NCBI GenBank assembly: GCA_964577365.1
Contig: CAZNYP010000001.1
Location: 50,025 to 109,832, forward strand
DNA length: 59,808 nucleotides
Reading direction: 5' to 3'
Source of the DNA: an uncultured Candidatus Saccharibacteria bacterium
Lineage (GTDB): Bacteria; Patescibacteriota; Minisyncoccia; Phycocordibacterales; PALSA-1337
Numbering within the stretch: the stretch's first letter is position 1; each line of letters begins with the position of its first letter. Shown here in pieces: positions 3,991-41,780 of the stretch. Below the pieces are notes generated by a model. The model did no database searches. It had not been told where the DNA came from and saw nothing but the letters and a program-made list of their open reading frames with translations. The position numbers were made by a program, and so were the translations under genes.

Positions 3991-3999
3991 ATATTTCTA

Positions 4000-6900
4000 T
4001 TATTCTTCTGATTCACCCTCTTTGCTGGTAAGTTCGACATCTAGCGCGAGACCTCGAAGTGACTTCAAGAGCACGTTAAATGATGCAGGGATGTTTGGCT
4101 GCTTCAATCGTTCACCCTTTACGATCGCGTCAAATGCCTGTGATCGGCCGACGATGTCGTCAGACTTGATCGTGAGGATTTCACGGAGTGTATGTGCTGC
4201 GCCGTGACCCAAAAGTGCCCAGACTTCCATTTCTCCAAATCGCTGACCTCCTCCCTGTGCCTTTCCTCCGAGTGGCTGCTGAGTGATGAGTGAGTATGGA
4301 CCGATAGATCGCATGTGGATCTTGTCCTCCACCATGTGGTGCAGTTTCAAGATGTACATATAACCGACTGATACACGCTGGTTGAATGCTTCTCCAGTTC
4401 GTCCATCGCGGAGTTCCATCTTTCCATCTTCTGCAAATCCTGCTTTCTTGAGCTCTGCACGGATTTCATCTTCGGTCGCTCCAGTAAATGGAGGAACGAT
4501 AGCCTGATAGTTGAGTGTGTTTGCTGCAAGTCCGAGGTGTAGCTCGAGGATCTGACCAAGGTTCATACGTGAAGGCACACCGAGTGGGGTGAGGATCATG
4601 TCTACTGGTCGACCATCTGCCATGTATGGCATGTCTTGTTCTGGGAGAATCTTTGAGATAACTCCCTTGTTTCCGTGACGACCTGCGAGCTTGTCTCCCA
4701 CAGATACATTTCGAAGCTGTGCGATCTCGACATAAATCTTTTTGATGATTCCTGACTCGAGCTTGTCACCCTTTTCTCGTGAGAATACCTTTACTGAGAT
4801 GACACGTCCTCGCTTTCCGTTTTCCATTCGCTTTGAGGTGTCTTTTACATCTCGAGCTTTTTCACCGAATATTGATCGGAGGAGGCGCTCTTCTGGAGTC
4901 AGCTGTGTCTCGCCTTTTGGAGAAATTTTACCGACGAGAATATCTCCAGGACGTACTTCTGCTCCTGGTCTTATGATACCGTCTTCTGCGAGGTTCTTTA
5001 GTTTTGCCTCACCGACGTTTGGAATGTCACATGTGGTGACTTCGGGACCGAGCTTTGTATCACGCACGTTTACCACGAACTCTTCGATATGGATAGAGGT
5101 AAATTTACTGTCTTTTACAAGGCGTTCTGAGATGATGATCGCGTCTTCGTAGTTTGATCCAGACCATGACATAAAGGCGATGAGCATGTTTTGTCCGAGC
5201 GCCATTTCTCCATTGTCTGATGTAGAAGTGTCGACGAGTACATCACCCTTTTTGACCTTTTGACCTACGGTTACGATTGGTCGCTGGTGGAATGCAGTGA
5301 ATCCGTTTGTTCGCTGGAAGTGAACGAGGTTGTATGTATATTTATCTTTCTTTCCTTTTAGTTCTACTTTTCGTGCATCAGCAAAAACGATTTCTCCATC
5401 CTCAGGTGCAACGACGATACGTCCTGTATCGAGCACTGCCTTCTTTTCAATACCTGTAGCCACGAGTGGCGCTTCGGGAATGAGACACGGAGTCGCCTGC
5501 TTTTGCATGTTCGATCCCATGAGTGCTCGGTTCGCATCGTCGTGGTTTAGGAATGGGATAAGTGAGGTAGCGATAGAGAATGCCTGGTTTGTAGAAACGT
5601 CGATGTATTCTACCTCGTCTTTTGGACAGAGGGCTGGCTTTCCACCAAATCGTACTTCGACTACATCATTCGTAATCTTTCCAGTCTTGTCATATGGAAT
5701 AGCTGCATGCGCTACCTTTGCACCCTCTTCTTCGAGTGCATTGAGGTATACGATTTCACCAGAGATCTTTCCGTTTTTCACCTTTGCATATGGAGTCTCG
5801 ATCATTCCAAAGTCATTGATGCGTGCATATATAGAGAGACGAAGGATGAGACCGATGTTTGGACCTTCTGGAGTGTGGATCGGACAGAGGCGGCCGTAGT
5901 GACTTGGGTGTACGTCGCGGACTTCGAAACTCGCTCGTTCACGAGTGAGACCTCCGGGACCGAGGGCTGAAAGTGTTCGAAGGTGCTCGATCTCAGCGAG
6001 CGCATTTTCCTGGAGCATGAACTGTGAGAGCTGGTTCTTAGTGAAAAACTCCTTGATACGAGCCTGAAGTGGTCGTGGGAACACAAAGTTTACCGGGAGC
6101 GATACATCTGGCTCTACGGTAGACATTTTGTCCTGAATATTTCGCTTCATCTGAGTCATACCGACACGGATCTTTTGTGCGAGGAGTTCTCCAACGAATC
6201 GTACACGTCGTGAACCGAGGTGGTCGATGTCGTCCTCGATCGCATCTGGAGTATTGTTGAGGTATACGATGTGTTCGATCGTAGTACCGAGGTCAGAAGC
6301 ATTGATCGTACGTCGCTCGAGCTCTTTTTCCTCCATTGATTTACCAAAACGCTTGTTGAAACGGAATCGTCCTACACGCTGGAGGTCGTATCGCTCTGCT
6401 TTGAAAATACCGCCGACGAACTCTCGTGCGTTGTCTGCTGTAGCGAGGTCTCCGTCTCGAAGTCTCTTGTGGATCTCGATAAATGCCTCATTTGTATTTT
6501 TTGCATGATCCTTTGTGAGTGTGAGCTCGATCGCTGTCTTTGTCTCTGGGTTGTTCTTAAAGAGAGCGAGAATATCCTCATTTGTCTCTGCACCGAGGAT
6601 GCGGAGGAGTGAAGTCACTGGGAACTTTCGCTTTCGATCGATACGAGCATAGATCGCACCGTCTGTGTCGGTCTCAATCTCGATCCATGCACCACGCGCT
6701 GGGATGATTTTTGCACCGAAAAAGTTTTTACCCTTTACTTCTTCTGAGGTAAAGAAGATACCAAATGATCGTGCGAGCTGTGGCACGATGACTCGTTCGA
6801 TACCGTTGATGATAAATGTTCCGTGATCGGTCATCAAAGGAAAATCAGCGAGGAACATCTCCTGCTCCTTTTCACTTCCGTGCAGCTTGTTCTTTAGCAT

Positions 6901-7176
6901 TACTTTTGCCTTGAGCTGACCCTCGTATGAGAGTTTGTTTGCCTTTGCATAGTGCTCGTCGAACTTTGGGCGTGAGAGTTCAAAATCGGTGAACGAAAGC
7001 TCGAACTTTTTTTCAGCATAGTCACGTATCGGAGAAAACTCTGCGAATACTTCTTTCAAATCGTGCTCGATGAGCTGTTTGAACGAATTTACCTGCGGAG
7101 CGACCAAGTCAGGCATCGTGGTCAATGCTTCCTTGTACCGTCCGAAATATTTTTTATCTGTTTTCATAAAAAGCAA
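4000..7176 (-). CDS. rpoB: DNA-directed RNA polymerase subunit beta (true start probably the ATG at 7167)
   Basis: 1058-aa ORF with beta-subunit motifs GRHGNKGVISKI and GVPSRMNLGQILE. The track start is a TTG, and an ATG (MKTDKKYF) lies 3 codons in. Confidence 0.97.
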   Translation of the reverse strand: MLFMKTDKKYFGRYKEALTTMPDLVAPQVNSFKQLIEHDLKEVFAEFSPIRDYAEKKFELSFTDFELSRPKFDEHYAKANKLSYEGQLKAKVMLKNKLHGSEKEQEMFLADFPLMTDHGTFIINGIERVIVPQLARSFGIFFTSEEVKGKNFFGAKIIPARGAWIEIETDTDGAIYARIDRKRKFPVTSLLRILGAETNEDILALFKNNPETKTAIELTLTKDHAKNTNEAFIEIHKRLRDGDLATADNAREFVGGIFKAERYDLQRVGRFRFNKRFGKSMEEKELERRTINASDLGTTIEHIVYLNNTPDAIEDDIDHLGSRRVRFVGELLAQKIRVGMTQMKRNIQDKMSTVEPDVSLPVNFVFPRPLQARIKEFFTKNQLSQFMLQENALAEIEHLRTLSALGPGGLTRERASFEVRDVHPSHYGRLCPIHTPEGPNIGLILRLSIYARINDFGMIETPYAKVKNGKISGEIVYLNALEEEGAKVAHAAIPYDKTGKITNDVVEVRFGGKPALCPKDEVEYIDVSTNQAFSIATSLIPFLNHDDANRALMGSNMQKQATPCLIPEAPLVATGIEKKAVLDTGRIVVAPEDGEIVFADARKVELKGKKDKYTYNLVHFQRTNGFTAFHQRPIVTVGQKVKKGDVLVDTSTSDNGEMALGQNMLIAFMSWSGSNYEDAIIISERLVKDSKFTSIHIEEFVVNVRDTKLGPEVTTCDIPNVGEAKLKNLAEDGIIRPGAEVRPGDILVGKISPKGETQLTPEERLLRSIFGEKARDVKDTSKRMENGKRGRVISVKVFSREKGDKLESGIIKKIYVEIAQLRNVSVGDKLAGRHGNKGVISKILPEQDMPYMADGRPVDMILTPLGVPSRMNLGQILELHLGLAANTLNYQAIVPPFTGATEDEIRAELKKAGFAEDGKMELRDGRTGEAFNQRVSVGYMYILKLHHMVEDKIHMRSIGPYSLITQQPLGGKAQGGGQRFGEMEVWALLGHGAAHTLREILTIKSDDIVGRSQAFDAIVKGERLKQPNIPASFNVLLKSLRGLALDVELTSKEGESEE

Positions 7177-7329
7177 AAAATCCCTGGAGTGCTATATCCA
7201 AAGGAATAACTATTAATTTCTAGTCTTTATAATCAAAGAGGACCAATTTTACGCCTTGTAATCCTTCTTCTGTGCGGCCGTGACTCAATCGTTGAAGTTA
7301 TGGTCAGCCTAGCATATAAAAAGTAGATG

Positions 7330-8205
7330 TCAAGGGGTGGATAACGCCGGCTGCGACTTTTCAGCATAAATGTCAATAAATTTATAGCTTATCTCATCAC
7401 CAATTTCTATCTTGACCATCAACCCTGTCTTTACCTCATCATTTGCATACTGATCAAAGATAAAGTTCCCCATTGAGTAGACAATGGGTTTGTCTTTATA
7501 GACTTCGGTCGTCTGGACCACATGCGGATGCGCGCCGATGACTGCATCTGCGCCCGCGTCGATAAATTTGCGTGCCCAGGTTTTTTGAAGTGTACTTGGC
7601 TCTTTTTCATACTCTACACCCCAATGCGGGAATACAATCGTATAGTCTGCGGTGGAAGAAGCGACTGTTGCTAAGACTTTTTCAAAATTTCTATATGAAA
7701 ATTCATTGAAACCAATAAACTCTACTTTTTTATCTTTCTTCTCAATTATAAAAGAGTGATTTTCTACATTTTCCCAATCACCAAAATATCCTATCCCTGC
7801 ATCCTGTAGATATTTGATCGTATCAGTATATCCCTTGTACCCAAAGTCTCGAGAATGGTTGTTTGCGAGACTGACTGCAGTGAACCGTTTGAGTTGCTCT
7901 ACCACCTTTGGGTCAAAGGTAAATTTGAGATTGTCCCTCTTTGCGATGCTTTTGTTCGTCGTGATCGTCCCTTCTAGATTCCCTACCACAATGTCTGCAT
8001 CGAGCGTTATTTTTTGAAATGGATATTCGTACCCGTGTTCATCCATGAGTGTGCGAACATACCGATCAAACATCATGTCCCCGACGATGAGTATCGTGAG
8101 GGGTTCAGGAGTAGGTATAGGAGTCGGTGCGACGTACGAAGTGGAACCCGGCATAAAAAGCCCGATTGCAAGTAGTGCACCGATGATACTAGCGACCTTC
8201 AGCAT
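7330..8205 (-). CDS. CapA/PgsA-family metallophosphatase-like membrane-anchored protein
   Basis: N-terminal hydrophobic anchor followed by ILIVGDMMFDR, GNLEG, SLANNHSRDFG, FPHWGVEYE, GAHPHV and MGNFIFDQ, which is the CapA-type pattern. Confidence 0.78.
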   Translation of the reverse strand: MLKVASIIGALLAIGLFMPGSTSYVAPTPIPTPEPLTILIVGDMMFDRYVRTLMDEHGYEYPFQKITLDADIVVGNLEGTITTNKSIAKRDNLKFTFDPKVVEQLKRFTAVSLANNHSRDFGYKGYTDTIKYLQDAGIGYFGDWENVENHSFIIEKKDKKVEFIGFNEFSYRNFEKVLATVASSTADYTIVFPHWGVEYEKEPSTLQKTWARKFIDAGADAVIGAHPHVVQTTEVYKDKPIVYSMGNFIFDQYANDEVKTGLMVKIEIGDEISYKFIDIYAEKSQPALSTP

Positions 8206-29364: not shown

Positions 29365-30112
29365 TCTTTCCAGTGATATAGTAGAGGTACTCGTTTTTGG
29401 TCGGCTCCTGGGCTGCCTTTATCGATTCGAGTCCAGGATTCGTGATGGGTAGAGCCGGGAAACCTTTTGTCTTGTAGGTCTCCATCGCCACATCTACCTG
29501 GAGGAGCATGCCGATACTGAGTCGTCGCCACAGGATGTCCGCAATCATTTTTCGATCTGTAGCGCTTTTTCCCTCCTCCTCGACGATCGCTGCCATCTTT
29601 ATCATGTCTGGAGAAACCTTGCCCACCTTTCGCTCAAATGTACCTTTTAAAAGTGACGCTACCTTGTCCTCATCAAAGTTGATCGGAAAAAGATACGTGT
29701 CAGGAAAGAGATACCCCTGGTCTTTATTATATTTTTTCAAGAACTGTGGTGCATCAAAATTCTCGAGCTTGCCCCAGATAAATCCGGCGATCTGCTCATT
29801 GTTTGATCCCTCAGGTATGGTCACACGGACATACGGTACTTTGCCTTCACCAGTTTTGAGACGAGAGACGATACCAAATAGTCCTACTTTTTCATCGAGG
29901 AAATAACTGTTTGATTTTATATTTCGTGCAAAGAGTTTGAAAAGTGGAACCGATCTGATGACACCTTTTTGTTTTAGAAGGTTCCCGATTTCCCCAACGC
30001 TTTTATTTTTCTCTACCACCACAATGGTTTCAACAGGAAAATCCCGTGGTGGAAGAATGGCCACCGTAAAAGATACGAGCACAGCGATGATGGGGACTAA
30101 TATAAATTTCAT
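29294..30112 (-). CDS. mltG: endolytic murein transglycosylase MltG (YceG-like)
   Basis: N-terminal TM helix, ...GYLFPDTYLFP..., and ...ASIVEEE-type (here AAIVEEEGK) YceG motifs. Confidence 0.85.
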   Translation of the reverse strand: MKFILVPIIAVLVSFTVAILPPRDFPVETIVVVEKNKSVGEIGNLLKQKGVIRSVPLFKLFARNIKSNSYFLDEKVGLFGIVSRLKTGEGKVPYVRVTIPEGSNNEQIAGFIWGKLENFDAPQFLKKYNKDQGYLFPDTYLFPINFDEDKVASLLKGTFERKVGKVSPDMIKMAAIVEEEGKSATDRKMIADILWRRLSIGMLLQVDVAMETYKTKGFPALPITNPGLESIKAAQEPTKNEYLYYITGKNGIFYYAKTFDEHKVNISKYLRG

Positions 30113-31350
30113 TATAGTGGAAGATTTGCTGGAGCTTCGCTTTTCTTTGACAGTATTCGGTTGAACGCTGGAGCCGCAGCCACCTGACCTGGGAAGTGAT
30201 AAATCGTTGCGAGCTCTTCGCTACTCATATGAATTGACTCTCCTTTTATTGGTCCGTAGAAAAACGAGCGACGCTTGTAGGCTTCGAGTGCCTCTTCCAT
30301 ATCACCATTCTGGCGTCTATTTTGAAAATCCTGCCATGGGTAGCTGAAACGAGGACTGTAAAACTTGCTATTTGGTTTGAAGCCGTTGAGTGTCTCTGAT
30401 GCATACTGCTTCCAGCTTCCAGTCATCCCCGAAATATTTGCTGGGTCATAAAATTCTTTTTTTCCAAAATAGATGATACGGATACCTACCTCGAACTGAA
30501 GCTTTGTGAGATTGCGCTCGATCGCAGATATGGTCTCGGTCTCACCTTTTGTCAGGACCACTTTTGCTCCATCCTCTCCTCCAGCGACGAATTTTGTTTT
30601 TGGATCACGCTTCATGAGATCATTGATGATTTCCTTTGCTGATTCTTTGTATGGATCATAATTTGTCTTGAAAAGTGTTCCTGGTTTTACCTGATCACCT
30701 TTGTGTGCACGGACAATGATCTGGAACCACGCCTGCTGGTTTGCACCGATAGAGCCCAAAAATTCGATAACCGGAGCGATCGGATCGACTTTGAATTCTT
30801 CTTTTGGATCTTTGTCGAGACCATAGTCGACATATGTTTTGATCGGATAGGCATCGTCTTTTGTAAACTGCAGGTTTGCCGCCCACATTTTCATCGTCTT
30901 TGGATCAAATGCAACAGGCAATGAATAGTCGGGTACCTCATGTACCTCGATACCGGGAAACTGAGCATAGAGTGATGATTCGATGAACTTTTGCATTCCC
31001 TTTCGAGTCCATATATAAAAGCCCACCTTGCCCTCGATAGAGGCCATTTCGAGTGAAAACCAAGGGCGAGTCTTTCCCAACCAATATTTATCATACCAGG
31101 TGCCTTCACCACCCGTCTGATGTAGTGTCGTCAAAAAGAGCTCCATGGCTACAGGAGATTTCATCAGTTCTTTTGGTAGTTTTATTTGGAGAAGGCGAAC
31201 TTCTTGTTTAAAGAAAAATTGAGCTCGGACATATGTCACCCAGATCTCCCAAAACAAAATGACGAGGATAAACGGCATCCAGATCGGGGCCAGTTTTGCC
31301 ATATAGAAAACGACAGTAGGAAGTGCAGTGGTGATAAATGCATCAAACAT
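30112..31350 (-). CDS. hypothetical membrane protein (412 aa)
   Basis: Two N-terminal TM helices, then a soluble domain (LLQIKLPKEL.KSPVAMELF...FSLEMASIEGKVGFYIW...YAQFPGIEVHEVPDY...EELATIYHFPG). TATAAT lies 6 nt upstream of the ATG. I cannot name a family with confidence. Confidence 0.6.
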   Translation of the reverse strand: MFDAFITTALPTVVFYMAKLAPIWMPFILVILFWEIWVTYVRAQFFFKQEVRLLQIKLPKELMKSPVAMELFLTTLHQTGGEGTWYDKYWLGKTRPWFSLEMASIEGKVGFYIWTRKGMQKFIESSLYAQFPGIEVHEVPDYSLPVAFDPKTMKMWAANLQFTKDDAYPIKTYVDYGLDKDPKEEFKVDPIAPVIEFLGSIGANQQAWFQIIVRAHKGDQVKPGTLFKTNYDPYKESAKEIINDLMKRDPKTKFVAGGEDGAKVVLTKGETETISAIERNLTKLQFEVGIRIIYFGKKEFYDPANISGMTGSWKQYASETLNGFKPNSKFYSPRFSYPWQDFQNRRQNGDMEEALEAYKRRSFFYGPIKGESIHMSSEELATIYHFPGQVAAAPAFNRILSKKSEAPANLPL

Positions 31351-31367
31351 GCATTTATTATACCCTA

Positions 31368-32399
31368 TTATTCTGCGACAGAATACTTGCCCTCAGAGTC
31401 TTTTTTGAAATACTTCTGGTTCTGTAGATTTACCATGATCGTATTTTCCTTTACATATCGCTCTTTGAGTACTTTTTCGATAATCTGCTCTTTTGTGAGT
31501 GGACCGTTTTTGATGACGATCTCGCGGATCACATCGCGCACTACACCGCTTGCATATCCCCATTCCTTGAGTGCATAGAGACCACGGCCAACGAGTACAA
31601 ATCGTGGATCCTTGATGAGCTCGTTGTGAGTTGTTGCAACGTGTGCTTTCTTTTTGAAAATCTTTTCGATATTTTTTGCTACCTCACGGAAGTGGATCGG
31701 AGAACCGTGCTTGCGGATGACGAGGAATGCATAGTCACGCATACCCTTTGTCTTGATATTTGAAGAAGTAGATACTCCCCATTCACCGAGTGCGTTTTTA
31801 CCAATCTTTTTTGAGATGGTGAGCCATCGCTTGAGGATTTCCTGATTTTTGTATTTTTCTGACACGTCTTCGAGGTGCTCGAGGAAAGACTGAATCATCT
31901 CTGATTCCTGGAGGAGATCATTGTCGCCGAGGTTTTCGTAGAGCTTGTGGAGTGAATCCTCTACTTTTTGTGCGAGCTCGTCACTCACATGCCATCGGTG
32001 TGCAAAATGATCGTCTTCTTTTCGGCGTTTGAATGATTCGTGGAGGGTGAGGAGAAAGTTGATGTGGTTCTGGATAGATACGTCTTTTGACATATGACTG
32101 AGGAAGTCTTCTTCGAGGACGATGCCACCGAGCGCGTGGAGCTGCTCTTCGATATGAGCAAAGGTCGCTTTTTCAGTCTTGTATCCTTCTGACTTTCGAA
32201 TATTTACGAGCGCATAGTTTTCGATCTGTCGAACACGCTCACGAGTGATACCATAGATCTTTCCGATCGAGTCGAGGGTCATACGAGTCGTATTTTTACC
32301 AAGTCCGTATCGCTGAATGATCACATCACGCGCACGTTCAGGAAGCACCGCGAGGAGCTTCTTGACTGTCTGTTTTGGTTTAAAATCTATTGGTGCCAT
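31368..32399 (-). CDS. DNA-binding protein with N-terminal sigma70 region-4-like HTH and C-terminal HARE-HTH-like domain
   Basis: The N-terminus RARDVIIQRYGLG...TLDSIGKIYGITRERVRQIENYAL resembles region 4.2. The C-terminus RDYAFLVIRKHGSPIHFREVAKNI...DPRFVLVGRGLYALKEWGY is HARE-HTH-like. No region 2 is present. Confidence 0.68.
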   Translation of the reverse strand: MAPIDFKPKQTVKKLLAVLPERARDVIIQRYGLGKNTTRMTLDSIGKIYGITRERVRQIENYALVNIRKSEGYKTEKATFAHIEEQLHALGGIVLEEDFLSHMSKDVSIQNHINFLLTLHESFKRRKEDDHFAHRWHVSDELAQKVEDSLHKLYENLGDNDLLQESEMIQSFLEHLEDVSEKYKNQEILKRWLTISKKIGKNALGEWGVSTSSNIKTKGMRDYAFLVIRKHGSPIHFREVAKNIEKIFKKKAHVATTHNELIKDPRFVLVGRGLYALKEWGYASGVVRDVIREIVIKNGPLTKEQIIEKVLKERYVKENTIMVNLQNQKYFKKDSEGKYSVAE

Positions 32400-32446
32400 A
32401 TGTGTTTTATAGGTGTTATAGTTGTATCATATATCGTGTATAGGTG

Positions 32447-35167
32447 TCAAGTAACCACAATATTGATGAGTTTATCCGGGATAAAAATGACCTTTTTCGC
32501 CTGATCTACCTTTACAAAGTCCAATGCTTTTTTCTCTAACTCCTCCCTGCTCTCGCCACCACTCACTTCGATCACTCCCTTTGTCTTTCCATTGAGCTGA
32601 ATAACTATTTTCTTTACATCAGCCTGGATTTTCCCTTCGTCTGCGGTGGGCCACTCTGATATATGGATACTCTCCTTTTTACCGATTTTTGTCCAGATCT
32701 CGTCTGCGATATGTGGTGCAAATGGAGCTACGAGCTGCACAAACTGTTCATACACCGATTTTGGAATGACCATTTCTTTTTCAAATTCATTGAGCGCGAT
32801 CATTAGGCTGCTCACTGCTGTGTTGAACCGCATGAGTGAAATGTCTTCGGTCACTTTTTTTATCGTCTTATGCAGCACAGAATCAATGTGTCGTGATGGT
32901 GTATCGAGACCGACTTTTTCTTTGAGCTTCCAGACACGCTCGATAAATCGGCGTGAACCGATGATGCTCGATGTATCCCATTTTATCTGCTGATCAAATG
33001 GACCGAGGAACATTTCGTATACTCGTAGTGTATCAGCACCGTATTTTGCAACGATATCATCTGGGTTCACTACATTTCCGTATCGCTTTGACATCTTGCG
33101 ACCGTCCTCTGCCATGATGAGACCTACATGCTGTAGTTTTTTAAATGGTTCGAGTGTCGAGACTGCTCCGATATCGTATAGGAATTTGTGCCAAAAACGG
33201 GCATAGATGAGGTGTCGGGTCGCATGTTCGGCTCCACCTACGTAGAGGTCTACCTGATTCCAGTATTTTTCTTTTTCCTTGTCTACCAGTGCCTTTTTAT
33301 TGTCCGGATCCATATAGCGGAGGTAGTACCACGAAGAACCTGCCCACTGGGGCATGGTATTGCTCTCGCGGGTATATTTTTCTTTACCGATTTTGACGTT
33401 CATCCACTTTTTTATACCTGCAAGCGGAGATTCACCGGTACCAGTCGGCTCGTATGATTTTACTTTTGGCAGTTCTACCGGAAGTTCTTTTTCTGAAACA
33501 GGAATTACCCCTTTTTCTCCATGCAGCACAGGGATAGGCTCTCCCCAATATCGCTGTCGTGAAAACACCCAGTCACGGAGCTTGTATTTTGTGATCCATT
33601 TTCCATTTACATGCTCTGCGATCTTCTTTTTGACTGTCTCCGAATTTTTCCCAGAAAATTCTCCAGAATTGTACAGCTCGCCACTGCCAGTATATGCATG
33701 CTCTTTTTTCAAAAACTTGCTAAACACCCATGGAAGCTCTGCGCCAGCTACTTCTTTTTCGAGGTTGTCACGATGAACCCAGACATTGTCATGGAGCTTT
33801 GTATCTTCAACACTTTTCTCTGTCTTTATCTCATCTCTTAATTTAAATAAAAGTGTACGAACGGTCGCAAATCGATTTTCATTTTTGTGCTGCGCAAAAT
33901 ACTCTGCATGCACCACTCCAGCTACCTCACCGACATAGTCAATATTGCTGTATCCCGTCTCTTCGGATATTTCACGCTGGGCGGATACAACTGGGTTTTC
34001 ACCCTCATCTACACCACCAGTTACGAGAAAAGTTCGCCCACCATAGTATTCTGGTTTCCATTTCACACATAAAAATAGATTCGGATCGGTTGGATGCTCA
34101 ACGATGCAGCGTACGTTATTTCTTTTTACTGTCTTCTTTCCTTTTACAGGTAGATTTTCCTTATCGATAAAATGAGGGATGATCACTTCTACACTCTTTA
34201 TATTGTGCTTTTTTGCAAATTCAAAGTCCCGTTCATCGTGTGCAGGCACGCCCATCACTGCCCCAGTTCCATAATCACTGAGAACGTAGTCAGCGACAAA
34301 TACAGGGATCTCCTCACCATTTGCCGGATTGATTGCGACTAGTTTTTTCTTTTTTGCGAGTGCATGTGACTCGGAAATAGCCAAATACGTCACACCATAT
34401 ATCGTGTCAGGGCGTGTGGTAAATATTTTTATTTTCTCTTTTGATCCTTTTACTGCAAAATCGATCTCAGCTCCCTCACTCTTTCCGATCCAGTTTTTCT
34501 GGCTTTCGACGATAGAGGACGGCCAATCGACATAGTCGAGGTCAGAGAGAAGTCGCTCTGCATAATCAGTGATACGGAGCACCCACTGGCGCATCGGCTT
34601 TTTTTCTACGAGTGTCCCACAGCGTTCACATTTTCCATCCTCGACGTCCTCGTTTGCGAGACCCGTTTTATCGAACGGACACCAGTTGATCGGTTCGTAT
34701 GATTCGTACGCCAACCCTTTTTCCAAAAGCTTGAGGAAAATCCACTGCGTCCACTTGTAGTATTTCGGATCTGTCGTGTTGATCTCTCGATCCCAGTCAT
34801 AGTCAAATCCGAGGATCTCGAGTTGCTTTTTATAGCGCGCTACATTTTTCTTTACCGCATCCACTGGGTTCGTCTTTGTCTTTATCGCATAGTTTTCAGC
34901 CGGCAATCCAAATGCATCAAACCCCATCGGGTGAAGCACATTGAACCCTTGCATGCGCTTCATGCGCGATACGACGTCTGTCGCGATATAGCCTTTTGGA
35001 TGACCGACGTGTAGTCCTTCTCCAGAGGGATACGGGAACATGTCGAGAATATAAAATTTGGGAGCATTAGATGCGTCTTTTGTACGATATATATTTTTCT
35101 TGGCCCATTCCTTTTGCCATTTTTGTTCGATATATGAGTGATCGTACGCCCTTGGGTCAGGTTTCAT
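32447..35167 (-). CDS. leuS: leucine--tRNA ligase carrying an inserted Nudix domain
   Basis: HVGHPKGY (HIGH-type), KMSKRYGN (KMSKS), and editing motifs TTRPDT and GTGAVMGVPAHDERD. The start is set at ATG 35167, with TGgTATTTT 6 nt upstream. An insert of about 150 aa contains a perfect Nudix box. Confidence 0.95.
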   Translation of the reverse strand: MKPDPRAYDHSYIEQKWQKEWAKKNIYRTKDASNAPKFYILDMFPYPSGEGLHVGHPKGYIATDVVSRMKRMQGFNVLHPMGFDAFGLPAENYAIKTKTNPVDAVKKNVARYKKQLEILGFDYDWDREINTTDPKYYKWTQWIFLKLLEKGLAYESYEPINWCPFDKTGLANEDVEDGKCERCGTLVEKKPMRQWVLRITDYAERLLSDLDYVDWPSSIVESQKNWIGKSEGAEIDFAVKGSKEKIKIFTTRPDTIYGVTYLAISESHALAKKKKLVAINPANGEEIPVFVADYVLSDYGTGAVMGVPAHDERDFEFAKKHNIKSVEVIIPHFIDKENLPVKGKKTVKRNNVRCIVEHPTDPNLFLCVKWKPEYYGGRTFLVTGGVDEGENPVVSAQREISEETGYSNIDYVGEVAGVVHAEYFAQHKNENRFATVRTLLFKLRDEIKTEKSVEDTKLHDNVWVHRDNLEKEVAGAELPWVFSKFLKKEHAYTGSGELYNSGEFSGKNSETVKKKIAEHVNGKWITKYKLRDWVFSRQRYWGEPIPVLHGEKGVIPVSEKELPVELPKVKSYEPTGTGESPLAGIKKWMNVKIGKEKYTRESNTMPQWAGSSWYYLRYMDPDNKKALVDKEKEKYWNQVDLYVGGAEHATRHLIYARFWHKFLYDIGAVSTLEPFKKLQHVGLIMAEDGRKMSKRYGNVVNPDDIVAKYGADTLRVYEMFLGPFDQQIKWDTSSIIGSRRFIERVWKLKEKVGLDTPSRHIDSVLHKTIKKVTEDISLMRFNTAVSSLMIALNEFEKEMVIPKSVYEQFVQLVAPFAPHIADEIWTKIGKKESIHISEWPTADEGKIQADVKKIVIQLNGKTKGVIEVSGGESREELEKKALDFVKVDQAKKVIFIPDKLINIVVT

Positions 35168-35197
35168 AATATTAAAATACCACAAATCGAAAATTAT

Positions 35198-35241
35198 GTA
35201 AAAGAAAACCCACCGGCCACGCGTTGCAGTGTGGGGGTGGG
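35198..35241 (-). terminator. imperfect GC-rich hairpin with U-tract ending the small-membrane-protein operon just upstream of leuS
   Basis: cccacc...ggtggg outer stem with internal pairing. On the minus strand it is followed by ttttctttt. Confidence 0.5.
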
Positions 35242-35418
35242 TCGATTTCTTCGGAGGGGGTATCCAGTCTTGGCCCTTCGTCCGGTATACCGTGGTGATG
35301 ACAACACCGCTGCCCGCAGGAAACGGTGGTGTCGCCTCGGTTATGGCGAACGTGAGGATGAGGTGTAGGATCCCCCAGATAAGCAGGAGCTTGATCATGG
35401 GATGAAGAACGTGCTGCT

Positions 35419-35562
35419 CTACCAGGGCGAGTAGGAAATGGAGTGGAGTGCGCCCATGATCCAATCGCCGATGATGTAGATGCCGGATGCAATCGCGAGG
35501 ATGATGATCCCCGCCAACACGATGCTTGCCGGCTTTACGGTGGTGTTAGCTCTGTGGCTCAT
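35419..35562 (-). CDS. small membrane protein (47 aa, 1 TM)
   Basis: Hand translation gives MSHRANTTVKPASIVLAGIIILAIASGIYIIGDWIMGALHSISYSPW. It lies 14 nt after the previous stop. Confidence 0.45.
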   Translation of the reverse strand: MSHRANTTVKPASIVLAGIIILAIASGIYIIGDWIMGALHSISYSPW

Positions 35563-36982: not shown

Positions 36983-38011
36983 TTACACCTTAAACTCCAT
37001 CACATCCCCATCCTTTACCACATACTCTTTCCCCTCTGTTCTCCAATTCCCATTTTTCAAAAGATCTTCCCAAAAAATGACATCTGCTTTAATAAATTTA
37101 TCTTTAAAATCATTGTGAATCGCAGTTCCCGCCATAGGAGCTGTCCATCCTTTTCGAATAGTCCACGCTCGAGTTTCTTTTTCTCCAGTGGTGAAATAGG
37201 TGATGAGTCCGAGGAGCTCGTATCCTGCTTTTATCAAATTGTCGATCCCTCCATCTCCCTCTCGCATTGCTTTTTTATCTTCATCAGAAAAGTCCTTCAT
37301 GTCATGCTCGGTCGCAGCATCTACTGCTACCCATTTTTTATCCTTTAGGTATTCGAGCAGATCTGCAGGCACTGTAGTGTCCCCTTTTTTATTTAATACA
37401 TACAAAACCGGTTTTGAGGTGAGGAGGTGGAGAGACTTGAGAAATGGTGCTTCAAACTCTGTAGCTTCTACTGTGTTCGCCAATTTGTTTTCAGCCAAAG
37501 CCGTCTTGATCCGCTCGAGGAGGCCTGCTTCGATGAGTGCTTCTTTTTTATTTGCCTTTATTTCTTTTTGTAAATTCCCTAGACGCTTGGTGACTGTTTC
37601 CTGATCAGCCAAAATGAGCTCCATGTTGATGATCTCGATATCAGTGATTGGGTCGATCTTTCCATCGACGTGGATGATGTTGTCATCTTGGAAAATACGA
37701 ACGACATGGGCGATCGCATCAGTCTCACGGATGTTGGTGAGGAATTTGTTTCCGAGACCTTCGCCTGATGATGCCCCTTTTACAAGTCCTGCAATGTCGA
37801 CGAACTCTACCGCTGCCGGCACGATCTTTTGAGTTTTAGAAAATTCAGCGAGTTTGTAGAGACGCTCGTCGGGTACTGCAACCACTCCGACAGACGGGTC
37901 GATCGTCGCAAACGGATAGTTCGCAATAAGCACACTCTTTTTGGTAAGAGCGGTGAAGAGGGTTGATTTTCCGACGTTTGGGAGACCGACAATACCGATG
38001 GATAGTGACAT
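36983..38011 (-). CDS. ychF: ribosome-binding ATPase YchF
   Basis: IGIVGLPNVGKSTLFTALT G1 motif and a C-terminal TGS-like ...GDVMEFKV. Confidence 0.93.
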   Translation of the reverse strand: MSLSIGIVGLPNVGKSTLFTALTKKSVLIANYPFATIDPSVGVVAVPDERLYKLAEFSKTQKIVPAAVEFVDIAGLVKGASSGEGLGNKFLTNIRETDAIAHVVRIFQDDNIIHVDGKIDPITDIEIINMELILADQETVTKRLGNLQKEIKANKKEALIEAGLLERIKTALAENKLANTVEATEFEAPFLKSLHLLTSKPVLYVLNKKGDTTVPADLLEYLKDKKWVAVDAATEHDMKDFSDEDKKAMREGDGGIDNLIKAGYELLGLITYFTTGEKETRAWTIRKGWTAPMAGTAIHNDFKDKFIKADVIFWEDLLKNGNWRTEGKEYVVKDGDVMEFKV

Positions 38012-38019
38012 AGAGATAC

Positions 38020-38062
38020 ATACTAGCGTATTATTGTGCTTTCATCAAACGTGTTGTAAGGT
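38020..38062. promoter_or_regulatory. overlapping divergent promoters for ychF and the MazG-like gene
   Basis: Minus strand: TTGATG (38043-38048)-N17-TAGTAT (38020-38025), 8 nt from ATG 38011. Plus strand: TTGTGC (38034-38039)-N17-TAAGGT (38057-38062), 12 nt from ATG 38075. Confidence 0.5.
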
Positions 38063-38074
38063 GTGGGAAGAAAT

Positions 38075-38785
38075 ATGAACACACTCAAAGACTACGGTCT
38101 ACACTTCCAAAAGATCTATGGTACTGCGAATGCAGTTAACCACCCCGGCCTCATCGACCGCTACATGCAACTCCTCTACGTGTTCCATCGCCTGCAAACG
38201 GCGATACGTAAAGAACAGAGGGATACGGCCTGCCGTCTTCTTCCCCAGTTGTTCGGTTGGACATTTGCTTGTATCAACCATTTCCCAGATCTTGACATTG
38301 ACCGCGCGATGGCACAAAAGTATCCCGCAAAATGTGGGTACTGTGGCAATAATCCGTGCAGGTGCGAACTGCATAGCCGACCTGATTTCAACCCAGACCT
38401 ATCAGGCACCATCGTCAGACGAAACCTAACGGACTGGCAAGAGCACCTGTACCGAATGTATGGGGAAAACAATGCACAGCGCGGTCTGGGTGTCATGATG
38501 GATCGCTTGGCGCAGGAGCTCATCGAACTCGGTGCTCATGCTGCGCGACTGGAGTATGTCGACGCTGAGCCACAGGTTGCCATGGAAAAAGCAGGCGAGG
38601 AATTCGCAGACGTTCTGTCATGGATACTGTCGCTCTCCGCGTACCTCGGTGTAATGCTCGAGACCCTAGTCATCCGTATCTATGGCAATGGCTGTCCGTC
38701 ATGCAATCGACCTCAGTGCAACTGTCGTCGTCTACACTCGACACCAGCTGGCCTGAGTGCGACTCCAAATACTCGAGTTACCTAA
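38075..38785 (+). CDS. tandem MazG-like (all-alpha NTP pyrophosphohydrolase-like) protein with two Cys knuckles
   Basis: The second half has LAQELIELG and EEFADVLSWILSLSAYLG, resembling the EExxE/EExxD metal motifs. The first half has the same helix pattern but lacks the acidic residues. Each half ends in Y-x3-5-CxxC-x4-5-CxC. The region is G+C-rich. Confidence 0.68.
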   Translation: MNTLKDYGLHFQKIYGTANAVNHPGLIDRYMQLLYVFHRLQTAIRKEQRDTACRLLPQLFGWTFACINHFPDLDIDRAMAQKYPAKCGYCGNNPCRCELHSRPDFNPDLSGTIVRRNLTDWQEHLYRMYGENNAQRGLGVMMDRLAQELIELGAHAARLEYVDAEPQVAMEKAGEEFADVLSWILSLSAYLGVMLETLVIRIYGNGCPSCNRPQCNCRRLHSTPAGLSATPNTRVT

Positions 38786-38797
38786 GTGTATACAAAA

Positions 38798-38829
38798 CGC
38801 CCGACCTCACGGTCGGGCGACTGTTTTTA
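38798..38829 (+). terminator. rho-independent terminator (cgcccgacc-tcac-ggtcgggcg + T-rich tail)
   Basis: Perfect 9-bp GC-rich stem 12 nt after the stop. Confidence 0.75.
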
Positions 38830-38835
38830 TAGGTA

Positions 38836-38864
38836 TTGCATATTATACATATATGTGGTATAAT
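38836..38864 (+). promoter_or_regulatory. near-consensus promoter TTGCAT-N17-TGgTATAAT, 8 nt upstream of ATG 38873
   Basis: -35 at 38836-38841 and -10 at 38859-38864. Confidence 0.7.
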
Positions 38865-38872
38865 ATAAATGT

Positions 38873-39259
38873 ATGAAATCGCTCTTCGACTATATCTTTT
38901 ACACTGTTTGTGTCAGCCGAGGATCCAAGTCTCTCTATCGTCTTGAAATCAGATGCAACGGGGTAAGTAACCCTGGCATTCGAATGACCAAGATTGTGGG
39001 AGTCGGGCCAAGCAGTTCACCTCCTGGGGCCGACCATTTCGGTAACTACCTACATGTGGGGGAAAATCTCGTGGTCCGCTACGAGAAAAACTCACTCGAC
39101 GGTGGCAGGAACACTTCCCGCATCGCCCTCCTTGCAACTGATGAGGGGGGAGCGCGTACCGCACTGGGACTCCCCGACTTGGTCCCGATGGATCCTCGAT
39201 TCGAGGTTTCCACAAAAGCCGTGCTTGCGCGACTCGCGCAGCACGAGTATGTGGACTGA
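38873..39259 (+). CDS. hypothetical protein (128 aa), leaderless orphan
   Basis: The ORF starts 8 nt after a TATAAT box and ends 24 nt before a strong terminator. No family motif recognised. An internal ATG at 38985 (MTKIVGV...) is an alternative start. Confidence 0.55.
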   Translation: MKSLFDYIFYTVCVSRGSKSLYRLEIRCNGVSNPGIRMTKIVGVGPSSSPPGADHFGNYLHVGENLVVRYEKNSLDGGRNTSRIALLATDEGGARTALGLPDLVPMDPRFEVSTKAVLARLAQHEYVD

Positions 39260-39283
39260 ACCACACCAGCACTTTTCAGGATG

Positions 39284-39311
39284 GCCCGACGCGAAGTCGG
39301 GCTTTCTCTTT
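39284..39311 (+). terminator. rho-independent terminator (gcccgac-gcgaa-gtcgggc + tttctcttt)
   Basis: Perfect 7-bp stem with a T-rich tail. Confidence 0.75.
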
Positions 39312-39325
39312 GCTATAATACCCCT

Positions 39326-39727
39326 ATGAAATACATTCTGATTCCGCTTTTTCTCCTCATCGCATTACCCACTCACGCTCATATCATAAAGAAAGATGGA
39401 AATTTTGAAGGAATGCTTCACATTCTCCCCGACGATATACCACTAGCAGGTACGACGACTGAATTTTATTTTATGTTTGAAGACAATAAAAAAATCGTCA
39501 CTGACTGCAAATGTGAAGTAAAAATCCTACAAAAAGGAAATGAACTGTATAGAAAAAATATCAAGGACTCTTTCTTTTTTGAGTTTCCAAAGATCGGTGT
39601 CTATCAAGCAGAAATTTATCGAAATGATTTTTCTATGACCTGGGATATACGAGTAGAAAAAGCGGTGGTAAAGCCGTCGTGGTTTAGCGTTTTCGCAAAG
39701 AGAGTCCGAGAGCTACTAGGGATATAA
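39326..39727 (+). CDS. secreted hypothetical protein (133 aa), predicted mature N-terminal His
   Basis: Signal peptide MKYILIPLFLLIALPTHA followed by HIIKKDG... TGcTATAAT lies 6 nt upstream. It is convergent with ycnI and their tails overlap. Confidence 0.62.
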   Translation: MKYILIPLFLLIALPTHAHIIKKDGNFEGMLHILPDDIPLAGTTTEFYFMFEDNKKIVTDCKCEVKILQKGNELYRKNIKDSFFFEFPKIGVYQAEIYRNDFSMTWDIRVEKAVVKPSWFSVFAKRVRELLGI

Positions 39728-40199
39728 CGAGGGCGAGAGTTGCGAGTGGAAACGGTTTCTTTGGCTCACCATGATGATCCGTCGCGAGGTCGTCGACCAC
39801 TTCGGTATTCGAGCTCGGATTTACCCCACCATCCCACGCAACGACACTACCATCAGAATATGTCTGATATGCTTTCCATGAGACGACTCCCTCGGTCGCA
39901 GGTGCTTTTGCAGAAAAAAGGAAATCATCGCGCTGTCCTACTGGGATACTTCCCCCACTCCAGACGATCTCTTTTCCATCACTTGCGATCTTCCATCCTG
40001 GTTTTACATATGGCATGACAGACTCGAATCCTGCTGGCACGACGACTTTTATCTGAGTAGTCGGAATATCTTTTTCAACTGGCACACCGACGGTGAATGT
40101 CTGGTATGATGCTACACCCGTCTGTGCAGGTTTTACGGTGACGTGGGCGAATGCAGGCACAGCAACAAACACTAAAAGTAAAGTAAATATAGTTTTCAT
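39684..40199 (-). CDS. ycnI: YcnI-family (DUF1775) copper-binding protein with a C-terminal membrane anchor
   Basis: Signal peptide ...AVPAFA followed by HVTVKPAQTGVASYQTFTVGVP.E......I.VV.P.GF.....V.PGW is the YcnI pattern. A C-terminal TM helix is present. Confidence 0.83.
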   Translation of the reverse strand: MKTIFTLLLVFVAVPAFAHVTVKPAQTGVASYQTFTVGVPVEKDIPTTQIKVVVPAGFESVMPYVKPGWKIASDGKEIVWSGGSIPVGQRDDFLFSAKAPATEGVVSWKAYQTYSDGSVVAWDGGVNPSSNTEVVDDLATDHHGEPKKPFPLATLALVISLVALGLSLRKR

Positions 40200-40432
40200 T
40201 ATGGCATCATTATTTTTTGTAATTCTGCTTGGTGCTTTCGCATGACCATCATACTCGCTTCCATCTGGCCCATGCCACCATTCATTTTTTCTTTTATCTC
40301 CTTTGAAATCATAATGAAAAAGTCAGGATTGGCCTCGACTGCATTCATAATACGATCCTGCTCCTTTGGAGGCAGGTTTTTGAGCTGCTTTTTCATCATC
40401 TGCTTCATCACAAAATTTTGAAATATTCCCAT
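40199..40432 (-). CDS. Met-rich small protein (77 aa, ~14 Met)
   Basis: MGIFQNFVMKQMMKKQ...MNGGMGQMEASMMVMRKHQAELQKIMMP. TGcTATAAT lies 7 nt upstream. Its stop overlaps the ycnI start as TAATG. Confidence 0.6.
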   Translation of the reverse strand: MGIFQNFVMKQMMKKQLKNLPPKEQDRIMNAVEANPDFFIMISKEIKEKMNGGMGQMEASMMVMRKHQAELQKIMMP

Positions 40433-40451
40433 GGCCAGGATTATAGCATAT

Positions 40452-41780
40452 TTACTCCGGCCGACTACCTTTTGGATATCGCTCGAGGGGGTCGGCCTTC
40501 CACCCATTTACGATCGGGGTGATGAATTTCCATGCAGCGAGCACTTCGTCGGTACTGGTAAATAGCGTTTGGTCACCGATAAATGCATCGTGAATGACTT
40601 TTTCATAGGCATCTATTTTTTCATGAGGAAAATCAGAGTATTTAAATTTTAACGTCTTTGGCTCTATATCCATACCAAAACCCGGTTTTTTTACCAAAAA
40701 CTTTATCTTTATTCCCTCATCAGGCTGGATCCTAAAGGTGAGAATATTCCCACCTTTGAAATATACATCGATTTCAGTCTTTGTCTCATCGAGGGCTTTT
40801 CCACTCTCGAGGTAAAATGGGACTTTTTTCCATCGCGCTGTGTTGATATGCGCTTCGAGTCTAAAATATGTCTCGGTATGTGATCCTGGATCGACGCCCT
40901 TTTCCTCACGATAGCCACTGTACTGGGCACGGATAGCATCGATGGACTGGAGGTTGCGGAGGATCTTTGCTCGTTCACGACGAATGTGCTCTGCGTCGAG
41001 GACCTCTGGCTCGTCCATGGCGACGATCGCAAGCATCTGGAGGATGTGGTTCTGCCCCACATCGCGAAGCGCTCCGACCCCATCATAAAATGCACCACGC
41101 CCCTCGATATCTATTTTCTCGAGGAGCTTGATATGTACACGATCGATGTATTTGTTGTTCCAGAGCGGTTCAAACAGAGAGTTTGCAAACCTGAATACGA
41201 GCACATTTTGAAGTGCCTCTTTTGCGAGATAGTGGTCGATACGAAAAATCTGGTCTTCGGCAAAGAGCTCGCCGAGTTTTTTATCTAGTTTCTTTGCAGT
41301 CTCTATATCGTTGCCAAATGGCTTTTCGATGAGGACGCGTGTCCACCCCTCTTCGCCCCCACACGGGATCGTGAGTCCGGTGCTCGAGAGATGGTCGAGG
41401 ATATTTTCATAGAGCGCTGGAGGGACAGAGAGGTGAAATAGTTTGTTTGAACAATATTTGAATTGTTGTTTGTCGATCGAGGTAAGGCGTTCTGCGAGAC
41501 GGTTGTACATATCGTCAGTATCAAATGATCCTTGGACATATGAGATGTGATCGATAAAATGTTTTACATCTTCTTCGCGGTACTGACCAAATTTTATATT
41601 GATCTCATCACGGATAAACTGACGAAATTCTTCGCGAGAAAGGAGTCTGCGTGAGACACCGACAACGGCGAATTTTTCTGGAAGCTTTTTATTTACATAC
41701 AGACTGAGCAGCGCCGGCAAGAGTTTCCGCTGTGCCAGATCTCCGGTGATACCAAAAATGACGAATATGGTGGGGCTCAT
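40452..41780 (-). CDS. zwf: glucose-6-phosphate 1-dehydrogenase
   Basis: FVIFGITGDLAQRKLLPAL NADP motif, RIDHYLAKE active-site motif, and EKPFG. Confidence 0.93.
   Translation of the reverse strand: MSPTIFVIFGITGDLAQRKLLPALLSLYVNKKLPEKFAVVGVSRRLLSREEFRQFIRDEINIKFGQYREEDVKHFIDHISYVQGSFDTDDMYNRLAERLTSIDKQQFKYCSNKLFHLSVPPALYENILDHLSSTGLTIPCGGEEGWTRVLIEKPFGNDIETAKKLDKKLGELFAEDQIFRIDHYLAKEALQNVLVFRFANSLFEPLWNNKYIDRVHIKLLEKIDIEGRGAFYDGVGALRDVGQNHILQMLAIVAMDEPEVLDAEHIRRERAKILRNLQSIDAIRAQYSGYREEKGVDPGSHTETYFRLEAHINTARWKKVPFYLESGKALDETKTEIDVYFKGGNILTFRIQPDEGIKIKFLVKKPGFGMDIEPKTLKFKYSDFPHEKIDAYEKVIHDAFIGDQTLFTSTDEVLAAWKFITPIVNGWKADPLERYPKGSRPE

Follow-up and report, generated by a model that had tools for sequence, protein, structure and literature searches.

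The window analyzed here, a DNA stretch of 59,808 nucleotides from an uncultured Candidatus Saccharibacteria bacterium (contig CAZNYP010000001.1 of assembly GCA_964577365.1; all coordinates are window positions), contains on its plus strand a gene encoding a 236-aa tandem MazG-like protein (P0001). Family alignment and structure modeling support its description as a single-chain asymmetric pseudo-dimer of the MazG fold with one carboxylate site and two four-cysteine (Cys4) motifs. As for its function, the modestly favored reading is that of a single-site, metal-stapled, pseudo-dimeric pyrophosphatase of deoxynucleoside triphosphates (dNTPs), which would act on pyrimidine dNTPs of the deoxyuridine or deoxycytidine triphosphate (dUTP/dCTP) type. 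The open reading frame (ORF) extends from an ATG at 38075 to a TAA ending at 38785. An alternative in-frame GTG start at 38063 would give 240 aa; the ATG was taken as the start because MNTL is where the family alignment and the 96%-identical relative P0002 both begin.

For the single protein sequence neither Pfam nor NCBIfam gave a match, even with a cutoff of E ≤ 10, and its best sequence match in the PDB is 1vmg with an E-value of only 0.036. A profile, the comparison of the two halves and the structure prediction were all based on an alignment (A1) of 89 members of the family, whose mean column identity is 29%. According to the profile search, the family shows significant similarity with known MazG members, namely SSO3215 (1vmg, E = 1.6e-15), iMazG (2q5z, E = 8.7e-9), the Bacillus nucleotide pyrophosphohydrolase 5ie9 (E = 5.8e-8) and YpjD (2gta, E = 2.9e-6), followed by DCTPP1/RS21-C6 (2oie and 6sqw, E about 1e-3). 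All these matches are confined to profile positions 111–207, which correspond to the C-terminal half. In addition, weak matches with PF03819 were found in 46 of the 89 members.

The AlphaFold2 model built on the same alignment is a single compact body with a predicted local distance difference test score (pLDDT) of 94.0 and a predicted template modeling score (pTM) of 0.91; for a chain of two modules the latter value means a confident prediction of how the halves are placed relative to each other. The model contains two four-helix bundles, with helices at residues 4–22, 26–45, 49–67 and 75–82 in the N-terminal half and at residues 118–136, 138–156, 166–190 and 195–203, plus a short C-terminal hairpin, in the C-terminal half. 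Foldseek matched one half with 1vmg (probability 1.00, target-normalized template modeling score, TM, of 0.82) and with YpjD, iMazG and RS21-C6 (TM 0.59–0.65). Whole-chain matches in BFVD, covering ~200 columns with a TM of about 0.5, are phage proteins named "NTP-PPase-like" (NTP, nucleoside triphosphate).

The intact MazG bundle is formed by residues 116–206 (38420–38692, plus strand). It carries the arrangement E148-x2-E151-x24-E176-x2-D179, which agrees with the metal-binding motif ExxE-(12–28)-ExxD reportedly defined by Moroz et al. in 2005. The first pair of ligands lies in the segment AQELIELG (codons 38516–38518 and 38525–38527) and the second in EEFADVLSW (codons 38600–38602 and 38609–38611). 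E151, E176 and D179 are invariant in the 89 members and E148 is found in at least 88 of them. The residues conserved in at least 90% of the members further include Y129, G130, N133, G137, R144, L145 and W183 in this half.

The N-terminal half (residues 1–86, 38075–38332) contains a degenerate copy of the same bundle. Comparison of the two halves of the alignment in hhalign gave a probability of 99.6% and an E-value of 1.9e-24 over 96 columns; the N-terminal half is therefore a diverged copy of the C-terminal one. At the profile level, homology of the halves by internal duplication is thus shown far beyond chance. In the hhalign register the four carboxylates E148, E151, E176 and D179 correspond to V36, R39, L55 and Q58, and across the family these columns are occupied by A/S/G, D/R/K, A and R/S, respectively. 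The ExxE...ExxD motif is absent from this half, and no complete second metal site was found in any of the 89 members. The residues that are conserved here are Y15, G16, N19, R29, R45, K46 and K82, of which R45 and K82 reach the 90% level.

Each half ends, directly after its last helix, in a C-x2-C-x4-C-x-C knuckle. The N-terminal knuckle YPAKCGYCGNNPCRC (C87, C90, C95 and C97; 38333–38365) is led in by K-Y-P...C, and the C-terminal knuckle YGNGCPSCNRPQCNC (C207, C210, C215 and C217; 38693–38725) by Y-G-x-G-C-P. The four cysteines of the former and C215 of the latter are invariant, whereas C207, C210 and C217 occur in at least 88 of the 89 members. In both places the four closely spaced cysteines are modeled with a local pLDDT of 93–96. 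Y89, inside the N-terminal knuckle, is conserved in 87 of 89 members, and the C-terminal knuckle has no counterpart of this tyrosine.

The first-pass annotation of this DNA, made from the letters alone, had proposed a covalent pseudo-dimer with a MazG-type C-terminal half, an N-terminal repeat lacking the acidic ligands, a single active site and two cysteine knuckles. This architecture is borne out: the motifs and both cysteine patterns are present as described, the C-terminal fold is recovered by profile and structure searches, the degeneracy of the N-terminal half by hhalign and column compositions, the single carboxylate site and the paired knuckles by the alignment and the AlphaFold2 model, and the cysteines are conserved among homologs (88–89 of 89).

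Comparison with known systems shows what distinguishes the family. The single-domain MazG enzymes (SSO3215, 1vmg; iMazG, 2q5z/2q73; Bacillus MazG, 5ie9; B. subtilis YpjD, 2gta) share with it the bundle of the C-terminal half and the ExxE...ExxD site (Foldseek target-normalized TM 0.63–0.82). However, they are proteins of about 95–120 aa that lack any cysteine motif and assemble into homo-dimers or tetramers whose sites are equivalent. The present family differs in the fusion of two copies, in the degeneracy of one site and in the CxxCx4CxC knuckle of each copy. The small knuckle-less MazG genes of Patescibacteria are a separate group. The E. coli-type tandem MazG (3cra) likewise combines a pair of MazG modules, in a chain of about 260 aa, but the domain arrangement is different (whole-chain TM of only 0.29), cysteine knuckles are lacking, and 3cra is absent from the matches of the A1 profile search. 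Both modules of E. coli MazG keep their acidic motifs, in contrast to the N-terminal half described here. DCTPP1/RS21-C6 (2oie, 6sqw, 7mu5) belongs to the same all-alpha NTP-PPase superfamily and gives a weak profile and fold match. Another pyrimidine dNTP pyrophosphatase suitable for comparison is the dCTPase-dUTPase gp56 of phage T4. Both DCTPP1 and gp56 differ from the family in their marginal sequence similarity (E about 1e-3), in being homo-oligomers and in having neither the duplication nor the knuckles. The dimeric all-alpha dUTPases (dUTPase_2) and DR2231 of Deinococcus, which are of the same superfamily, provide a precedent for dUTP hydrolysis on this fold (PMC5122711); no match with them was found among those listed in Pfam, in the PDB profile results or in the Foldseek top 50.

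A phmmer search, exhaustive over 1.84 billion representatives of clusters at 50% identity, detected at least 636 related proteins with E-values up to 1e-3, of which 226 were at or below 1e-10; almost all have a length of 220–265 aa and are matched from end to end. A word-index homolog search alone recovered just 3–7 relatives. The family belongs mostly to the candidate phyla radiation (CPR)/Patescibacteria. In the source annotations its members are named "hypothetical protein" or, generically, "NTP pyrophosphatase (non-canonical NTP hydrolase)". No dedicated Pfam model exists for the family, and comparison of the 89 members with NCBIfam, PHROGs and PADLOC gave no significant match (0/89 for the latter two, and hence no known defense or phage family). 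A literature search found no paper on the tandem MazG-Cys4 architecture.

Within the phylum the distribution is patchy. Profile matches at E ≤ 1e-8 were obtained in 25 of 401 sampled genomes, about 18 of them with full two-half proteins and the rest with small knuckle-less MazG proteins; the same-order and same-class genomes among those listed in this sample had no match. A degenerate DNA pattern for the N-terminal knuckle, K-[YF]-P-x3-C-x-Y-C-x3-P-C-x-C, was also scanned over the GTDB species genomes and gave 39 sites, of which 35 are true members. Their hosts are mostly Saccharibacteria, Paceibacterota, Kaiser-, Nomura- and Shapirobacteria and Levyibacteriota, with a few members in metagenome-assembled genomes labeled Gammaproteobacteria or Bdellovibrionales. 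A tblastn search detected no copy on plasmids and one copy in 50,697 phage records. The latter is a 330-aa family member (6649–7641 of PQ189347.1) carried as cargo by an 8-kb filamentous phage of Vibrio cyclitrophicus (Tubulavirales); it is located between the Zot-like gene I and a regulator. Both CxxCx4CxC knuckles are present, and the C-terminus is extended by ~90 aa.

The neighborhoods of about 56 family loci are heterogeneous but have thymidylate-pathway genes as a recurrent element. In a blind Pfam tally of an independent set, the 84 neighbors lying within two genes on either side at 31 pattern-scan loci, the most recurrent families were DCD (3), Tmk (3), SHMT (2), ThyX (2) and dUTPase (2), with ThyA found once; the ThyX neighbors are known solely from this tally. 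The arrangement in L004 is DHFR-DCD-ThyA / dCMP deaminase-dUTPase-[gene]-Tmk-SHMT. DCD-Dut-Tmk-[gene] occurs in L098, Dut-Tmk-[gene]-DCD in L097, and ThyA / [gene] / Tmk / SHMT in L081. Tmk lies immediately downstream in L002 and adjacent in L039, dCMP deaminase lies upstream in L057, and SHMT is adjacent in L045 and nearby in L095. Altogether a thymidylate link is present in about 9 of the ~56 loci against ~1.5 expected, the latter being a rough estimate (six pathway genes per ~900 genes, four neighbor slots) and not a formal test. In the L098 operon, a 599-aa protein with an RHR motif is encoded directly downstream of the family member (2822–4621 of the locus); it is probably one of the two tallied ThyX matches and, if so, an unusually long and possibly duplicated ThyX.

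Together with the architecture, these neighborhoods point to the favored mechanism. The enzyme would hydrolyze (d)NTP to (d)NMP and pyrophosphate at one composite site, for which the C-terminal half would supply the metals through its four carboxylates, predicted to bind Mg2+. The N-terminal half would provide the phosphate and base contacts and so replace the partner subunit of an ordinary MazG dimer; its basic residues R29, R45, K46 and K82, together with Y89, may complete the C-terminal site. The two Cys4 knuckles would bind putative structural zinc and staple the ends of the bundles. By analogy with T4 gp56 or DCTPP1, the substrates would be pyrimidine dNTPs, dUTP and/or dCTP, and the enzyme would provide thymidylate synthesis with the monophosphates dUMP and dCMP and prevent dUTP from entering DNA. 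A dUTPase activity has been described for MazG-like enzymes (PMC5122711), and pyrimidine dNTP pyrophosphatases such as DCTPP1 feed or balance the dCMP, dUMP and thymidine triphosphate (dTTP) pools (PMC7162842). This role fits the tmk, dut, dcd, thyA and dCMP deaminase neighborhoods of the family.

The bacterium's own genome encodes part of this pathway. Contig C2 carries a CYTH-Dcd-ThyA-SHMT operon with a divergent DHFR gene (29381–33464), and a weak Tmk match lies on contig C12. Neither dUTPase nor dCMP deaminase was found by tblastn, motif search and a small hidden Markov model (HMM), a search whose sensitivity is limited because the same tblastn and motif screens had first missed Dcd, which was found by reading the ThyA operon and with Pfam. 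The best weak match of the Dut HMM (C4, 20642–21172) was rejected as a spurious frame. Since no dUTPase and no dCMP deaminase were found, the protein may supply the dUTPase step in this genome. Compared with the Pfam model, the ThyA of the C2 operon contains ~40 inserted residues; the gene directly upstream of dcd encodes the CYTH-domain protein.

Several points weigh against this interpretation. Substrate specificity cannot be read from sequence, and the preference for pyrimidines is inferred. About 84% of the neighborhoods have no thymidylate link and are heterogeneous. The gene is not simply a replacement for dUTPase, because canonical dUTPase and Dcd co-occur with it in L004, L097 and L098, and its optional presence, described below, argues against an essential housekeeping step. 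The Dut search consisted of tblastn, a motif search and an HMM of four sequences in a genome that is 94% complete. Finally, the geometry of the composite site and the tetrahedral geometry of the cysteines are presumed, as is zinc rather than an iron–sulfur (Fe–S) cluster.

The same neighborhoods bear on another explanation, a generic house-cleaning pyrophosphatase for oxidized, alkylated or deaminated dNTPs with no specific thymidylate role. The closest solved relatives of the family (SSO3215, iMazG, the Bacillus MazG 5ie9, YpjD and DCTPP1) are broad or sanitizing enzymes, and repair or replication genes do occur at some loci: an AlkD-like DNA alkylation repair gene is divergently adjacent in four loci, RecR and DnaB are near the gene in L054, and PIF1 and an ExoX-like gene in L061. 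However, the four AlkD loci stem from one or two related lineages (family f81), and it is thymidylate-pathway enzymes, not repair genes, that recur most among the neighbors; house-cleaning alone is thus a credible but unlikely account. At the four AlkD loci (L037, L038, L040 and L041, about 5600–7520) the divergent gene belongs to PF08713, and three of the genomes read TGA as a sense codon (code 25).

To return to the window, the gene is bounded by its own regulatory signals. An intrinsic terminator follows the ORF, with a hairpin at 38798–38819 (CGCCCGACC-TCAC-GGTCGGGCG, then ACTGTTTTTA) that has nine pairs, eight of them G-C, and a 4-nt loop; the element with its T-run spans 38798–38829 and resembles a terminator on either strand. 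The stem is conserved in L007, which has a 59%-identical relative of the protein, and in L009, which has the 96%-identical allele. Upstream, the block between ychF and the MazG-like gene (38005–38055) holds putative overlapping divergent promoters. The plus-strand site is GTGACA-N18-TATTAT at 38005–38034; on the minus strand, TTGATG-N17-TAGTAT was read 8 nt before the ychF ATG, which would make ychF near-leaderless. The plus-strand consensus alone is not above chance (three sites against 2.6 expected). It lies within a block of which 46 aligned bases show no difference in L007 and L009, despite synonymous substitution (dS) values of 1–2 in the flanking genes, and the TATTAT hexamer is present only in the gene-carrying genomes, TACTTC standing in its place in empty sites; this restriction gives the promoter some support. 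As for base composition, the gene has a G+C content of 52.6% against 45.8% (standard deviation 4.0) over 558 ORFs of the genome (z = 1.7, top 5.6%), so that its enrichment is only moderate.

The gene is an optional promoter-to-terminator cassette, a conclusion supported by empty sites in near relatives. In the window it is divergent from ychF, and after it come a 128-aa orphan, a protein of 148 aa, ycnI (DUF1775) with a Met-rich protein, and zwf; in L007 and L009 it is likewise kept beside ychF. In contrast, L102, L103 and L104, whose YchF is 94% identical, have zwf, the Met-rich gene and ychF in the same order without it. In these three genomes the left flank ...CAAAAAAC runs straight into CACTTATGGCATCATT..., which in L007 stands after the terminator T-run, and the ychF-proximal block of the empty site, ...CTTCAAAAAAC, abuts CACTTATGGCATCATT. 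From this clean junction the cassette is therefore ~0.77 kb long and comprises leader, coding sequence and terminator at 38056–38829 on the plus strand. No target-site duplication or recombinase was seen at its junctions.

Between the window and L009, the gene shows a nonsynonymous substitution value (dN) of 0.017 and a dS of 0.30 (ratio 0.056). Between the window and L007, its dN is 0.35 with saturated dS, while the flanking ychF, zwf and ABC genes have a dN of 0.03–0.045 and a dS of 1.1–2.0; the dN/dS of the gene at this distance is roughly 0.2. As judged from these substitution values, the gene is shown to be functional and under purifying selection, and its rate of evolution is about ten times that of the housekeeping genes beside it. 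To explain the 59% identity between flanks that are 93–96% identical, allelic replacement and positive selection were considered but rejected: since dS of the flanks is already 1–2, the gene is simply less constrained and no replacement of alleles is needed.

A cassette of this kind could also be a conflict gene, that is, a mobile guard of the nucleotide pool or a counter-defense enzyme directed at phage-modified pyrimidine dNTPs (hydroxymethyl-dUTP, hydroxymethyl-dCTP or dUTP), an alarmone or an immune signaling nucleotide. Its presence or absence at a variable locus, the patchy distribution in the phylum, the mildly deviant G+C content and a protein that changes about ten times faster than its flanks would agree with this, as would one homolog beside HicAB inside the S10 operon, another carried by the Vibrio filamentous phage, and the whole-chain BFVD matches to phage proteins. 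The first-pass annotation had inferred such a role, with alarmones among the possible substrates, from a foreign composition and a stand-alone cassette structure, and had proposed looking for phage or defense islands around homologs. The terminator-bounded 236-aa gene and the accessory cassette were confirmed by the analysis, whereas the promoter stands on the conserved block and the restricted hexamer but not on its consensus, and the G+C richness is real but mild. The conflict role itself was not supported: comparison of the 89 members with PADLOC and PHROGs gave no match, there is no plasmid copy and a single phage copy, and dN/dS is well below 1. No defense families recur in the about 56 neighborhoods, where thymidylate and pyrimidine-dNTP genes recur instead, and the window neighbors are ychF, the orphan and ycnI/copper-type genes. 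A role in conflict is accordingly judged quite unlikely. The HicB-HicA pair and its adjacent family member, found in one CPR lineage (L055, 3280–4903; L056, 3060–4683), lie between rpsJ (S10) and rplC (L3) and interrupt an otherwise conserved ribosomal-protein operon.

A reading that joins metabolism with immunity can also be proposed, although it is a rather distant prospect: the mobile, self-contained cassette would provide genome-reduced CPR bacteria with a new class of dUTPase/dCTPase, a metal-stapled enzyme of one chain and one site, and would have been captured beside tmk repeatedly because it serves in addition as a guard of the pool. Destruction of dUTP or of phage-type modified pyrimidine dNTPs would then amount to immunity at the nucleotide level as well as to metabolism.

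As for the knuckles, they might hold a redox-active Fe–S cluster or serve as thiol switches, and redox or metal status would then control the activity. The presence of four invariant cysteines in each knuckle is compatible with this; one member weakly matches an NCBIfam model of an Fe–S cluster domain (E = 0.0021), and the near-invariant Y89, found in the N-terminal knuckle alone, hints at a function that is more than structural. However, in its GCPxC signature and its 11-residue CxxCx4CxC spacing the motif is similar to zinc or rubredoxin-type knuckles, the sole PDB sequence similarity of the knuckle peptide is with generic CPxCG zinc-finger knuckles, and CPR genomes generally have a limited capacity for Fe–S assembly, which makes a redox role very doubtful. 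A regulator that binds nucleotides or nucleic acids on a MazG scaffold is highly improbable, for although zinc knuckles often bind nucleic acids and, in one half of the chain, catalytic residues have disappeared and conserved basic ones have been acquired, conservation of the four C-terminal carboxylates in 88–89 of 89 members at 29% mean column identity is hard to explain without catalysis.

The surroundings of the gene show further variation. The interval between ychF and zwf (38005–40510) is a hotspot of single-gene promoter-to-terminator cassettes: the empty genomes have just the Met-rich gene of 69–77 aa there, L007 adds the MazG-like gene, and the window and L009 add the 128-aa orphan, a protein of 134–148 aa and ycnI. 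L009 additionally contains two glycosyl-transferase/hydrolase genes, and L102 a gene for a 576-aa protein. The orphan (38873–39259), located directly downstream of the MazG-like gene, has 54% G+C, no Pfam match, its own promoter-like site and a terminator at 39283–39303; it is conserved in L009 and absent from L007 and the empty-site genomes. Beyond ychF, at the place of the window's EVE-domain gene, L103 (3854–8004) and L104 (2968–7427) carry a phage-like block in which small ORFs accompany a Phage_rep_O-like gene and an N6/N4 DNA methyltransferase; this is a second site of variation next to ychF. In addition, the leucyl-tRNA synthetase encoded at 32447–35464 has a NUDIX domain (ORF residues 448–570) in the region of its editing domain, as does that of L102.

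MazG enzymes are normally symmetric homo-oligomers. The family described here fixes an asymmetric heterodimer, with a predicted catalytic and a non-catalytic half, in one chain and adds two Cys4 clasps, which makes it a natural example of subfunctionalization after duplication. The MazG superfamily itself is known; what appears new is the fused one-site architecture with two Cys4 knuckles. The family is large (at least 636 clusters at 50% identity), centered on CPR/Patescibacteria, and has been without a dedicated Pfam or NCBIfam model. The promoter-to-terminator cassette with its clean empty sites gives a handle on the exchange of single genes in CPR genomes. Some of the genomes that carry the family, this one included, appear to be without a canonical dUTPase, and its placement among tmk, dcd, dut, thyA and thyX leads to a testable hypothesis on how ultra-small bacteria may obtain dUMP and exclude uracil from DNA.

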